A DNA stretch of 64,000 bases from a virus (Duplodnaviria > Caudoviricetes): IMG/VR virus record IMGVR_UViG_3300012983_000001, positions 1 to 64,000 of that record; one strand, 5' to 3'. Below, piece after piece: positions 3,245-7,772 of this stretch; position 1 is the stretch's first letter; each line of letters begins with the position of its first letter. A program made the translations under genes and the position numbers. The notes beneath the pieces are model-generated. The model did no database searches. It saw only the letters and a program-made list of their open reading frames with translations, and had not been told where the DNA came from.

Positions 3245-3751
3245 ATGGCAATCATAGGCGAATGGATTCCGCAATGTGGATTCAAATCTAAAGCTGATGC
3301 TCATAAAGTAGCATTAGAACTTGAAAGTATCGGGTATAGCAATGGTACCGATGAATTCAATACACAGGAGATTGTAGACTTTGCTCGTAACAATCCTACC
3401 TGTGAAATGTATAACTTATTTGAATGGAACGATACTATTGCCGCTGAAGCTCACCGAAATGAGCAGGCAAGAGACATACTTCGTTTTCTTAAGATTACAG
3501 TAGTCAAACAGGAAGAAGATACTGTTTCTATGCAACCAACTGTCGTGCGATACTTTGTTAATACAGGTAAACGAGATGGTACATATAAGAAAACCGAAGT
3601 AATCTTTCAGAATGCTAGTGAAGCAGACAGAATTATGGAAGGAATGAAGCGTGATGCTGAGAATTTTATTAATAGATATCAGATTTATGCTCATCTTAAT
3701 CCAAATATTCCAGCTGCAATCCAGGCATTACAGGCAGTAATTAATCCTTAA
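3245..3751 (+). CDS. Phage protein, putative accessory protein of the RAMP/RNA-array locus
   Basis: AGGAGG RBS; motif IVDFAR..P...Y.LFEWNDTIAAEAHR.EQAR.ILR; stop lies 5 nt before the array. Confidence 0.8.
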   Translation: MAIIGEWIPQCGFKSKADAHKVALELESIGYSNGTDEFNTQEIVDFARNNPTCEMYNLFEWNDTIAAEAHRNEQARDILRFLKITVVKQEEDTVSMQPTVVRYFVNTGKRDGTYKKTEVIFQNASEADRIMEGMKRDAENFINRYQIYAHLNPNIPAAIQALQAVINP

Positions 3752-3755
3752 TATA

Positions 3756-4620
3756 TAATCTTACCGTAGATATATTGGCTTTAATGGTCAATGAGAAGAA
3801 TGCAACAAAGGTCAGAATATGACAGGACAGTGCAGCGTATATCATTACATCATATTTCAAATGGCTTTTAGAGCCTTTATATCTGCGGTAAGATTACTGC
3901 GAGTACAATATAGGATAGAATTGCTCATATCAGACCATATCAGTAGAATGCAGAATAACAGAAAATACTACAATACAAGTCTTTTATTCTTTTACATGCA
4001 TATTGGCTTTATGGCTAATAACCACACTACAAGTTCGAACAGGACAGAACATTTCAGAAACACGAGACCTGAGAACAGAATAGCGTATATCAAAGGCTTT
4101 AGAGTCAATATTCATGTAAAAGAGGACAGGACAACTCAGTGCATTTCTACCACAACAAATGACAATTTATATCATGATAAGACAGAGGGGCGGTTAAATT
4201 ACCGCCCTATTTTTATAAGCATAAATATTGGCTTTAATTAGTCAATAAAATAGTACAGAACAGGTCAGGATACGTCAGCAAAAAAACAGCTAATCTCACT
4301 ACAACACAGCGTATTGCATAAGTTAACAGGACAGTATAGCACAAAGTACCAAATAACAATACATAGGCTCATTAGAGCCTTTATTTATGCTTATAAATTT
4401 AGTGGGGCTAACGCCCCACTAATGATTATGAATACATATATTGGCTTTAATTGGTCAATAAGAACAGGATAGCTTAGGAGAAGTCAAAACAGTTCTCAAT
4501 ACAGCTTACGTCCGAACATTACATATCAAATGGCTCTTAGAGCCTTTATATGTGTTCATAAACACAAGCACAAAGACAGCAGAATACATGTCAGTGCAAC
4601 GTAGGACATTACAAAACAAA
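3756..4620 (+). ncRNA. Array of structured RNA cassettes with 5-nt periodic (NN + D-Y-A) tracts; putative guide RNAs
   Basis: Four cassettes (3756-3896, 3988-4123, 4212-4397, 4426-4561), each with a long outer inverted repeat, a 5' hairpin ATTGGCTTTA..RGYYAAT and a 3' hairpin GGCTY.TTAGAGYC; pentamer tracts inside and between them; G-U pairs support + strand. Confidence 0.85.
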
Positions 4621-4661
4621 ATCCTACTAAAGTAAGTAGGTAGAAAGTGAGGACACACATT

Positions 4662-5348
4662 ATGGCAGCTAAGAAAGCTCAGACAAGTGCAAACCCAGAA
4701 GTACAGGTAGTAGAAACTGAATTACAGAATAAGATTCGTTTTGCTACAGCAACAATCACCATTCAGGGGGATAGTGATTTAATTCTTAACAAAATGAGAG
4801 ACAGTACAACTCAGCAGCTCGCAGATAAGCAGGAGGGCAAGGTTCAGGGTACCAAGGCTCCTGTAAACATGTATGAGCATCTTGTTGGTTCCATCCACTG
4901 GTTAAAGGGCGAGGAAACCAACTATACCGAAGAAGGCTGGAGAAACGCATTAGCAAACAATGTTCCAGGTTATCCGTCTTCTGGTTTAAAGAAAGCTCTG
5001 TGTGATGCAGTTGTTCGTGTACTGGGCGAAACATACAGTACAAAGTTTAATGCAAATATGCAGATTCTTGACAGTTTCCTGCCGATTACATTCGCAGCGA
5101 GTACATATGACAAGTCTCTGTTTAGCCCGCAGAAGGGTAGCCCTGTTCTTTGTTACAGAAATGTATTTAAGGACTGGGAAACAACGTTTACTATTAAGTA
5201 TATTCCAGACAACTATTCTTTAGACCAGATTCTGGAAGTTATCAACTGTGCAGGTTTTGCATGTGGTATCGGTAGTCATAGACCATCCAGTAAGGGTGGT
5301 TCTAACGGCATGTTCCATGTTGCAAAAGTTGTAGAGATGGCTGCATAA
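4662..5348 (+). CDS. Stand-alone RAMP / Cas7-like protein
   Basis: N-terminal strand TITIQGDSDLILNK, PGYPSSGLKKAL (cf. RAMP P.IPGSSLKGAL), C-terminal Gly-rich loop AGFACGIGSHRPSSKGGSNGMFHV; ATG at 4662 after GAGG. Confidence 0.8.
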   Translation: MAAKKAQTSANPEVQVVETELQNKIRFATATITIQGDSDLILNKMRDSTTQQLADKQEGKVQGTKAPVNMYEHLVGSIHWLKGEETNYTEEGWRNALANNVPGYPSSGLKKALCDAVVRVLGETYSTKFNANMQILDSFLPITFAASTYDKSLFSPQKGSPVLCYRNVFKDWETTFTIKYIPDNYSLDQILEVINCAGFACGIGSHRPSSKGGSNGMFHVAKVVEMAA

Positions 5349-5360
5349 GGAGGGATTATT

Positions 5361-5810
5361 TTGATTACTAAAGTTCAGCCATATGAAAAACTGGTGGACT
5401 ATGTAAAACAGAATCCCCAGAAAGGACAATTGATTCCACATGTAGATATCGAGCAGATTATCGGCATACCTTATCGTAAAGCGTGTGGATGCTTAAATGG
5501 TAAGTATTCTCGTGAGGTTGCAAAAGCAATCGAGAAACTCACCTCTATGGCATTAAGATTAGACCCAATTCAGGGCTATGGTTATCGTATTCTTGAAGAT
5601 AACCAATATGTCGACGTCATGGGAAGACTGTATAATACCAGTATAACATTCATGGAAAAGGCAAGATTTGTTGCCGATGGTGCTGATGTATCTAATTTGT
5701 CAGCACAAGATTTAAAGAACTTTAACGATGTTTACAATCGTATTGTAAGTGCTCAGACAGCCTTACATAGAATTCCGAAACCAGTAGCGACTCTTAAGAG
5801 TACACCATAA
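5361..5810 (+). CDS. Phage protein, possible winged-helix; putative accessory protein of the RAMP locus
   Basis: AAGGAGG RBS 12 nt after RAMP stop; helical N-terminus and wing-like LDPIQGYGYRIL. Confidence 0.7.
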   Translation: MITKVQPYEKLVDYVKQNPQKGQLIPHVDIEQIIGIPYRKACGCLNGKYSREVAKAIEKLTSMALRLDPIQGYGYRILEDNQYVDVMGRLYNTSITFMEKARFVADGADVSNLSAQDLKNFNDVYNRIVSAQTALHRIPKPVATLKSTP

Positions 5811-5819
5811 GGAGGACAT

Positions 5820-6287
5820 ATGGCTATTACAACAAAGTACAATTACGATGGCACTGTGGATTTACTGAAGAAGGTTGCAGATACCACACAGATTATCACC
5901 AGAGCTGAATTAATGCAGATTTTATGTGGACACATAGTAACGGACAGAGCAGAAGTCACACGTTTCTTGTCTGCCGTACATACGCTGAGAACAGGTAGGC
6001 TGAAAAAGGCAGGTATCGGCATCGAAGCAATCACAGTTGGCAAAAAGCAGGCCAAAGGAGAGGTTGCTGATTACAAAGTATATTATCTTCAGGCTACCAC
6101 CAAGCCTGTTAAGGTAGACAACAATATACATGCCCTGGAGAAAGACAATCAGAGATTGTTCTTAGAACTGGAAGAGCTCAAAAAGAATTATGATATTCTG
6201 GAGCGTGAATACCGTGAAACAGTTCGTCGTGAAGCAAGCTACAAAGCATTGGTGCAGACTTATCATGCGTTAGCTATGGGAGTGTAG
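5820..6287 (+). CDS. Hypothetical protein with C-terminal coiled coil
   Basis: AAGGAGG RBS; heptad LEKDNQRLFLELEELKKNYDILE. Confidence 0.75.
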   Translation: MAITTKYNYDGTVDLLKKVADTTQIITRAELMQILCGHIVTDRAEVTRFLSAVHTLRTGRLKKAGIGIEAITVGKKQAKGEVADYKVYYLQATTKPVKVDNNIHALEKDNQRLFLELEELKKNYDILEREYRETVRREASYKALVQTYHALAMGV

Positions 6288-6626: not shown

Positions 6627-7080
6627 GGGAAGGAAAACCCTATAATAAACCGCTAAGATAGGGAAGACATTGCTAGTGGAACCCGCAGAACCCAAACTTA
6701 GAGCCGTATGGCACATGCAACAAAACAAAATAAGTGAACACTGGTCTCGCATATGAGGACCGTATGTCACCAGATTGCTGACTGGGCGTATAGTTAAACA
6801 GGATGATAGAGAAGGATACTCTGAAATAAACCGCTAAGACATTATCAGCCACGGACGCACCCATGCGTACAAATCCGTATGAAATATGACGTAGGCCAAG
6901 TTCACTTAGATGTAATAAAGAACTTAAGCGTGGGAACATATGTATATTTTTGAGAAGGAAAACTCGTTATCAAACCGCTAAGTGTTTTAGAAGACATGGT
7001 GAAAAAGCAGCGCATAGCCTCAACACCAAATGCTTCGGGAACGTTACTTGTTTTGCCTACCAGGCCCACTTAGATGTAAC
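6627..7080 (+). repeat. Three dispersed repeat units in a non-coding region; candidate ncRNA
   Basis: GRG-AAGGAWA(A)-CYC hairpin plus AAACCGCTAAG at 6647, 6828, 6972; each followed downstream by CTTAG (CACTTAGATGTAA twice). Confidence 0.7.
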
Positions 7081-7248
7081 CAGAAAAAGACCGATAAAAC
7101 CTAAACAAGTTATAGTTGGTAGTATACGTAGTGTCGGGTTAAAAGCAGAGATGAGACAAATCGACCATTCACTGTCTATTAGATAGGGATAAACGACGAG
7201 GAACTACAAGTACATAAGAGCGAGTGTGCGAGCCATAAGGCTACTAGG

Positions 7249-7280
7249 ACAGGGGATGTCATATGCTCCATCCCCTGTTT
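7249..7280 (+). terminator. Intrinsic terminator
   Basis: ACAGGGGATG/CATCCCCTGT stem then TTT. Confidence 0.7.
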
Positions 7281-7347: not shown

Positions 7348-7419
7348 TGGGCTATCGCCAAGCGGCAAGGCACAGCACTTTGACTGCTGCATCCGTAAGT
7401 TCGAATCTTACTAGCCCAG
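7348..7419 (+). tRNA. tRNA-Gln (TTG)
   Basis: Acceptor TGGGCTA/TAGCCCA, CAGCA-ctTTGac-TGCTG, T-loop TTCGAAT. Confidence 0.95.
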
Positions 7420-7423
7420 CTAT

Positions 7424-7583
7424 GCATCTTCGTCTAGCTTACGAGATAGAGTACTCAATGTCAACTAAGTGAACTCGGTGAAAGCACCCTGATTAGGGTG
7501 TGACGGGTGAACGCCAAGCAGCAATGAGTAGCGCTCCATGTCGCCTTGGCAAGTAGTTCTGGGTTCGACTCCTGGGGGATGCA
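7424..7583 (+). ncRNA. tRNA-like RNA with 67-nt insertion in the anticodon loop
   Basis: Acceptor GCATCTT/GGGATGC+A, D stem TCTA/TAGA, stem TACTCA/TGAGTA enclosing 7458-7524, T arm CTGGG-TTCGACT-CCTGG. Confidence 0.6.
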
Positions 7584-7597
7584 TTCAAGAGTTTCTT

Positions 7598-7669
7598 GCA
7601 CGGGTAGTTGAGCGGGACAACGCCAGGCCTGGGGCTTGGAAGTCGCGAGTTCGAATCTCGTTCTGTGCG
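7598..7669 (+). tRNA. tRNA-Pro (TGG), atypical
   Basis: Acceptor GCACGGG/TCTGTGC, D stem GTTG/CAAC, CCAGG-ccTGGgg-CTTGG (C at position 33), T-loop TTCGAAT. Confidence 0.7.
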
Positions 7670-7772
7670 GAAAAAGAAACTTTGACACCAGGCATAGTCA
7701 TTCGGCGGGTGGATACTACTATACAGCACAAGATGCAATGGACGGTATCGAAAGAACTGTTGACTAATAATA

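Follow-up and report, generated by a model that had tools for sequence, protein, structure and literature searches.

Long covarying helices close the cassettes of a predicted VIPR guide-RNA array in a 208-kb phage genome

The window analysed here, a stretch of 64,000 nt covering positions 1 to 64,000 of IMG/VR record IMGVR_UViG_3300012983_000001, is the start of a virus record that is complete at 208,433 bp and has terminal repeats. A gene-free stretch of 910 nt (3752-4661) lies between a 168-aa open reading frame (ORF; 3245-3751) and a 228-aa ORF (4662-5348), all on the + strand, and consists of four units (cassettes), each closed by a helix, with conserved inner motifs and a tract of strict 5-nt period inside. 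VIPR systems, CRISPR-like systems of phages in which RNA guides the binding of DNA, were first described in 2026 and were defined as a phage-encoded Vipr protein together with RNAs of 9-16 pentanucleotide repeats and a conserved structured 3' tail (bioRxiv 10.64898/2026.04.26.720920). Because the gene adjoining the region encodes a Vipr homologue, the region is, judged by homology, a guide-RNA (vrRNA) array of a VIPR system, which contains seven guides, four of them enclosed by helices (E1-E4) and three trailing (T1-T3). The features of the locus are as follows.

3245-3751, + strand: 168-aa gene, which stops 5 nt before cassette 1; candidate accessory (vap-like) gene, fold unassigned
3756-3896, + strand: cassette 1 (E1), with helix 3759-3784/3868-3893, 5' hairpin 3774-3792 and 3' hairpin 3863-3875; folding z-score (z) = -8.65
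3787-3862, + strand: periodic tract of cassette 1, 15 units
3897-3982, + strand: trailing guide T1, about 16 YANNW units between cassettes 1 and 2, from a register parse and a period scan
3987-4124, + strand: cassette 2 (E2), with helix 3987-4012/4099-4124, continuous and without internal loop; z = -6.62
4015-4094, + strand: periodic tract of cassette 2, including one 6-nt unit
4122-4215, + strand: trailing guide T2, with tract 4122-4186, then a GC hairpin and T run at 4187-4215, terminator-like
4212-4397, + strand: cassette 3 (E3), with helix 4212-4237/4372-4397 and a long tract of 25 units that breaks at an A run; z = -4.34
4399-4422, + strand: GC hairpin between cassettes 3 and 4, 10 bp, 100% complementary
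4425-4562, + strand: cassette 4 (E4), with helix 4425-4450/4537-4562, tract 4453-4531 and 3' hairpin 4532-4544; z = -6.75
4562-4641, + strand: trailing guide T3, with tract 4562-4618 and its own 3' hairpin 4623-4640, within the 5' leader of vipr
4662-5348, + strand: vipr gene, encoding a 228-aa RAMP protein, the predicted partner of the guides

The inverted repeats of the four cassettes (arms of 28-45 nt) were recovered by a repeat search at the positions claimed in an earlier note on this DNA, and ATATTGGCTTTA is present in exactly four copies in the 208-kb genome, all of them inside the array. That note had also suggested looking for covariation across related phages, and covariation is present in 28 cassettes from 10 phages, namely this phage and nine relatives with Vipr proteins 60-96% identical. 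The 28 cassettes were anchored ungapped on the 5' motif ATTGGCTTTAA and the 3' motif TTAGAGCC. Counted from the inside (GGCTTTAA/TTAGAGCC), helix pairs 0-7 are conserved and 93-100% paired, the inner helix being GGCUUUAA paired with UUAGAGCC; at positions 8-9, about two thirds of the cassettes have a UU/UU internal loop and the others are paired; from position 10 to position 24 unpaired cells are rare, and each column shows three to five pair types. Pairing falls to 75% at position 25 and to about 30%, the chance level, at positions 26-30. The closing helix measures 25-27 bp in 24 of the 28 cassettes (mode 26), and its inner 8 bp are the same in all cassettes, the outer 15-16 bp being particular to the position in the array.

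When the closing helix was examined on a MAFFT alignment, 93% of the cells were paired and 17 of the 26 pairs carried changes on both sides (116 cells). None of 500 shuffles reached any of the observed helix measures, sliding the partner by 1-3 columns left only 32-56% pairing, and the RNAalifold consensus recovered the same helix independently. In the outer stems, structure and not sequence is selected, which agrees with the proposal of the earlier note. On the + strand the imperfect pairs read U·G, and wobble cells in the close clade comprise 56 G·U (+ strand) against 2 A·C, which shows that the helix is selected in the RNA of the vipr-sense strand and not in DNA, and bears out the + orientation proposed before. 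According to RNAfold, the four cassettes on the + strand are more stable than shuffled sequences (z = -8.7, -6.6, -4.3 and -6.8 for cassettes 1-4), and the - strand is weaker.

Enclosing helices are also found with distant Vipr homologues (36-48% identity), which occur mostly in phages of 30-60 kb and in some larger ones, and which have 5-nt CA/TA/AC tracts upstream of the gene. The helices around these tracts, which are periodic loops of 50-100 nt, measure 22-33 bp (median 27) and are unrelated in sequence, and the wobble cells amount to 177 G·U against 39 A·C. Since the distant clades have enclosing helices too, the helix-closed cassette is a trait of this whole Vipr clade.

The product of 4662-5348 is predicted to be a Vipr protein with a Cas7/Csm3 fold, by profile search and structural model. 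A profile of 36 homologues (query included) matched one solved structure, PDB 36pp chain D 'SUSP1 Vipr protein' (E 5.9e-8), and the single sequence matched SUSP1 Vipr with E 5e-5. The AlphaFold2 (AF2) model has a predicted local distance difference test score (pLDDT) of 87, its top Foldseek matches are Csm3/Cas7 RAMP subunits of type III and VII CRISPR complexes (E ~4e-7, probability 1.0), and a G-rich C-terminal loop is conserved in the Vipr homologues. Described Vipr proteins are minimal RAMPs with an RRM core, a glycine-rich loop and a thumb. The earlier note had taken the periodic tracts for guides and left the system unassigned; the first of these points stands, the adjoining Vipr homologue making them guides of a RAMP protein, and the second can be filled in, the family being known as VIPR and published in 2026. 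Searches for known elements gave no competing assignment: Rfam at a permissive threshold (E up to 10) returned chance-level matches only, with no ribozyme, CRISPR repeat or known small RNA; Tandem Repeats Finder reported no array in the region; blastn of the region against 50,697 phage records gave no match; and PHROG and Pfam scans of the neighbouring genes found no Cas families.

The periodicity of the guides is strict. CA-CA distances in the region peak at 5, 10, 15 and 20 nt (counts of 29, 29, 24 and 25, against about 6 elsewhere), and a windowed period scan resolves seven tracts in which a single phase dominates; those outside the stems, three in number, have the same 5-nt period as the enclosed ones, as had been noticed before. 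The logo of 443 five-nt units from the 28 enclosed guides reads Y(0.84) A(0.93) N N W(0.88), with C 0.50 and T 0.34 at position 1, A 0.93 at position 2, and A 0.59 and T 0.29 at position 5. The fixed trinucleotide is hence WYA, mostly ACA, with NN at positions 3-4, and differs from the canonical GGY consensus. Most guides have 12-16 units and one has 25; the spacing of the 5' to the 3' motif is not a multiple of 5, and register shifts inside the guides occur as units of 6-7 nt. A sponge for CsrA or a TRAP-like protein (GGA/CAG words) was considered for the region and dropped after the period-5 logo and the Vipr homology, and DNA-level origin iterons and attC-like sites were rejected on account of the one-sided wobble pairs.

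In published vrRNAs, GGY is held by the protein and NN read double-stranded DNA with every third base skipped (10.64898/2026.04.26.720920; 10.64898/2026.04.26.720927). D177 and W178 of SUSP1 Vipr are reported to read the two guanines (10.64898/2026.04.26.720927). In a HMMER alignment, these residues correspond to S205/H206 here, R138/R179 are kept as R166/R207, and the G-loop (residues 201-207) reads C-G-I-G-S-H-R here versus C-G-V-G-D-W-R in SUSP1 Vipr. Both guanine-reading residues are replaced in a clade whose repeats are without guanines. The replacement at S205/H206 would fit an altered specificity for the fixed trinucleotide.

The base composition of the two free positions was compared with that of the first two codon positions in the long ORFs of this phage.

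NN position 3: A.35, C.12, G.34, T.18
Codon position 1: A.34, C.15, G.32, T.19
NN position 4: A.40, C.19, G.19, T.23
Codon position 2: A.38, C.21, G.14, T.28

The NN composition is close to that of codon positions 1-2, as predicted by a 1-nt-skip code aimed at coding DNA, and this may be taken as indirect support for such a code.

Each cassette also has a 5' hairpin (ATTGGC / GYYAAT) and a 3' hairpin (GGCTY / GAGYC), both of which the earlier note had described as lying within the stems. The 5' hairpin (ATTGGC-loop-GYCAAT) has 6 bp and loops of 5-8 nt, and four of its columns contain changes that are compensatory or turn a wobble into a Watson-Crick pair. The 5-bp stem of the 3' hairpin (GGCTC-loop-GAGCC) appears as GACTC/GAGTC twice and as GGCTT/AAGCC once. 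Taken together, the local hairpins show 98% pairing and 4 compensated pairs, and their covariation score was reached in none of 500 shuffles. In 27 of the 28 enclosed guides the 3' hairpin stands directly after the last unit (CAAAU/G), and the W2 copy is a weaker 4-bp variant. The 5' motif pairs with the 3' motif as well (GGCTTTAA/TTAGAGCC), which lengthens each outer stem to a helix of 25-26 bp, and this is the minimum-free-energy fold. Because the same nucleotides are used, the hairpins and the inner third of the long helix exclude each other; the hairpins are thus real and covarying, as the earlier note had it, and are an alternative to the inner part of the helix, not an addition to it. 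By constrained RNAfold, the extended fold of the intact cassette has a mean energy of -39.8 kcal/mol and the hairpin fold one of -33.0 kcal/mol, about 7 in favour of the extended fold, and with the outer arms removed the two are nearly equal (-19.5 for the extended fold and -17.9 for the hairpins). The design recurs with other sequences in distant relatives such as L043 and L011 (by eye).

The outer arms are conserved between phages at the same array position, with occasional compensatory changes. Among 26 pairs of cassettes from different phages that have their arms in common (at most 3 mismatches per 30 nt), the median identity of the tracts is 0.605, against a background of 0.58, and the outer arms of cassette 4 recur in L009, L010, L060 and L063 around unrelated tracts. 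Unrelated tracts between shared arms show that guides are replaced while their frames stay conserved; recombination for such exchange would most obviously take place in the inner motifs that the cassettes have in common. In L010:2492-2530 (the same DNA as L008:3492-3530), the place of cassette 2 is taken by a 25-bp hairpin that is built from the usual arms and inner motifs and encloses a 4-nt loop instead of a tract, which indicates that the helix is kept there without a guide.

The distinction between enclosed and trailing guides drawn in the earlier note holds across phages: the enclosed guides are hypervariable, and the trailing guides T2 and T3 are conserved, with their own 3' hairpins. 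For T1, its counterpart in L008/L010 has the NN of the first five units in common (by eye). The tract of T2 is conserved in L009, L010 and L063, and the stem of its GC hairpin, after which a U run follows, covaries. This hairpin (4187-4208, followed by the terminator-like T run) and the one at 4399-4422 are the two GC hairpins that had been reported before, and both were confirmed; the latter is missing from the corresponding place in L007/L009. Across five phages (this one with L009, L060, L061 and L063), all substitutions in T3 fall at unit positions 1 or 5 and none at NN, and its 3' hairpin covaries. The conservation of NN in T3 may be taken as further indirect support for a reading of DNA through these positions. 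T3 is the most conserved guide and lies about 20 nt before the ribosome-binding site of vipr. Binding of Vipr to T3 in its own leader could lead to autoregulation of vipr. In the close relatives, the downstream intergenic regions contain no periodic tracts, and arrays are found only upstream of vipr.

Bacterial rRNA operons and phage T7 early transcripts, with their RNase III stems, as well as the duplex of trans-activating CRISPR RNA with precursor CRISPR RNA (tracrRNA:pre-crRNA), present a comparable arrangement, in which long-range or intermolecular duplexes of about two or more turns flank a functional RNA and are cut by a host double-strand-specific nuclease, releasing the units of a multi-unit precursor. 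We consider it somewhat better than even, at a probability of roughly 0.55, that the closing helices are likewise processing signals of a multi-guide precursor, where an RNase III-type cut frees the guides, the hairpins refold and Vipr loads. The helix (25-27 bp in 24 of 28 cassettes, 22-33 bp in the distant clades) has the length of an RNase III substrate, about two helical turns or more, and processing by RNase III is plausible. The cassettes differ from the known stems in that we infer the cleavage here, in that a conserved inner third is joined to a position-specific outer part, and in that the conserved part can refold into two hairpins.

The array would be transcribed on the + strand, upstream of vipr and probably together with it. 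Owing to the unique outer arms, each 5' flank would pair with its own 3' flank and not with that of a neighbour, and each guide would form its own domain. The helix of ~26 bp would then be cut by a double-strand-specific RNase, most likely host RNase III, which would free the enclosed guides as well as the trailing guides between the helices. With the outer arms gone, the remaining helix would be no more stable than the two hairpins, and the hairpins would form at the two ends of a guide that is now linear and open to the assembly of a Vipr filament; in each unit, W-Y-A would be bound by Vipr protomers and NN would be free to read DNA. A fuller version, which would be a maturation route specific to this clade, with the outer arms as 'addresses', a host double-strand RNase, a two-state opening step and inner motifs that double as recombination handles, is possible and is put forward tentatively; on this version, guides would be swappable within conserved frames, a modular and exchangeable guide library.

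The explanation that comes next in rank is that the helices are left uncut, as permanent clamps or insulators that keep the guides as closed loops, and that they delimit where Vipr loads, shield the guide from exonucleases or keep it inactive until the helix melts; we regard this as doubtful. Fixed length and covariation suit such a structural role as well as they suit cleavage, the extended fold is the most stable state, and published type II vrRNAs are capped by a structured 3' tail that is not a cleavage product. Against it stands the geometry of the filament, whose published pitch is ~72 A per 6 subunits (10.64898/2026.04.26.720927). A 14-unit guide would then span ~170 A, so that its ends could not stay paired once it is coated by Vipr, and an opening step would be needed. 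Moreover, the trailing guides would be without defined ends if nothing were cut, and the tract-less helix in L010 would clamp nothing.

A further explanation likens the cassettes to CRISPR arrays: both hairpins would be copies of a single direct repeat (WTGGCTYTTA...) on either side of each guide, a RAMP protein (Vipr or an accessory protein) would bind or cut them in the manner of Cas6, and the inner helix would be a by-product of a self-complementary repeat. Conserved hairpin-forming elements flank variable guides in both cases, and the partner protein, here Vipr, is a RAMP. In addition, the 5' and 3' motifs have the half-site TGGCTnTTA in common, the 5' pattern picks up the 3' copies, and both hairpins keep their pairing through compensatory changes while the loop lengths vary. 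However, this explanation does not account for the 15-16 further bp of position-specific, covarying outer arms, nor for the continuous helices of 27-33 bp in the distant clades, where L043 is without a 3' hairpin (by eye), and cleavage of RNA by Vipr is not reported in the available portions of the published work. We judge this explanation improbable. Unlike the guides of CRISPR arrays, those described here are internally periodic; repeats and spacers do not alternate at regular distances, no CRISPR repeat family scored above threshold and no cas genes are nearby. Action of the inverted repeats on DNA, as recombination or cruciform sites (attC-like) for cassette exchange, would answer the need for some exchange mechanism that is posed by the same outer arms around unrelated guides in different phages, but it is very improbable, because the wobble cells (56 against 2 in the close clade, 177 against 39 in the distant ones) show that one RNA strand is under selection, the genes next to the array include no recombinase, and exchange is explicable by homologous recombination in the shared inner motifs.

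Processing of a multi-guide precursor at its closing helices also has several points against it. No target was found for any guide, so that guide function rests on homology: searches of the phage's own genome with skips of 0-3 gave no match beyond chance, skip 3 returning only the guides' own loci; the guides of the relatives matched this genome no better with skip 1 than with skip 0 or 2; and six exact patterns of 10-12 units gave 0 matches in IMG/VR, GTDB genomes and JGI metagenomes, exact matching being insensitive, so that this result does not speak against targeting. No RNase III domain was found in the phage proteins, so a host enzyme must be assumed, host RNase III being likely. In three cassettes (3863-3885, 4365-4390 and 4532-4554), the 3' hairpin and the UUUAU after it resemble an intrinsic terminator with a weak score, and if transcription ended there, the closing helix could not form. 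The T run after the hairpin of T2 overlaps the 5' arm of cassette 3, and the helix of cassette 3 would therefore need read-through of this terminator-like site. Finally, some distant clades show no evident 3' local hairpin (L043, by eye), so the switch between the two folds may be clade-specific, and the pairing of the inner helix might merely reflect the use of a single stem sequence by both hairpins.

Compared with the type II VIPR of SUSP1, the locus is alike in its phage-encoded small RAMP homologue, its 5-nt units with three fixed and two free positions, a structured 3' element after the repeats, and the location of arrays in long intergenic regions beside vipr. It differs in the fixed trinucleotide (WYA here, GGY there), in the 3' element (a 5-bp hairpin here, a pseudoknot there) and in that four guides lie in 26-bp helices. 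The repeat consensuses of the discovery paper are YNNGG, NNNGG, YNNNG and NNNNG (10.64898/2026.04.26.720920), and a genomic language model study describes 21 clusters of 5-nt arrays beside Vipr-like folds, with the cores GAC, CAC, WGT and TGH (10.64898/2026.10.21.760802). These non-canonical repeats resemble the ones here in having fixed trinucleotides other than GGY near Vipr-like folds; in contrast, WYA/ACA is named in the available text of neither paper, and closing helices are undescribed in that of the language-model study, whose supplementary figure may include WYA.

Array layouts named for VIPR are simple, staggered, hammerhead-ribozyme-interspersed and single-guide (10.64898/2026.04.26.720920, figs S18-S20). 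Such layouts are alike in that several guides need separation, and the ribozyme arrays contain built-in processing elements; unlike them, the array described here has no ribozyme, and its guides would be separated by way of long helices and a host enzyme. In the main text of the three VIPR papers searched for them, stem, hairpin (besides the tail), inverted repeat and RNase III go unmentioned. The family is known (VIPR, April-October 2026), and on the available portions of these papers the helix-closed layout is a third, undescribed array layout beside the staggered and the ribozyme-interspersed ones; the supplementary figures may show this clade. In a 218-kb phage with Vipr 40% identical (L014:1791-2662), successive copies of one ~26-nt arm point in alternating directions, so that each can pair with either neighbour and every tract is enclosed, which resembles the 'staggered' idea carried out by helices.

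For the maturation of multi-guide VIPR arrays, this locus and its relatives give a well-defined layout backed by covariation. It makes testable whether guide release depends on a host double-strand RNase, as in the maturation of type II CRISPR RNAs, how a filament-forming RAMP protein loads onto a guide that starts as a closed loop, and how Vipr reads a trinucleotide other than GGY with two guanine-contacting residues replaced. Conserved frames around unrelated guides hint at how phages could renew guides without an acquisition machine, and for engineering, orthogonal closing helices could allow several guides to be obtained from one transcript.

Several neighbouring genes were also identified. 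The 168-aa protein encoded upstream of the array matches phrog_15946, whose function is unassigned; it has no Pfam family, and its AF2 model (pLDDT 71) has no fold match in the PDB. Its homologues are found only in the close phage clade and always immediately upstream of the array, and the gene is a candidate accessory (vap-like) gene. Two small genes right after vipr (5361-6287; 149 and 155 aa) have weak PHROG matches with function unassigned, and several relatives (L060, L062) lack them or have other genes in their place, which indicates that they are not a fixed part of the system. A second gene-free region (6627-7280), in which three AAACCGCTAAG units had been noticed before, lies downstream of the VIPR operon and before tRNA-Gln; it is without a 5-nt YA period and hence is no second guide array of this type. 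The VIPR locus is flanked by seven tRNA genes (Ile, Asn, Glu, Met, Lys, Gln and Pro), at 54-1125 and 7348-7670.
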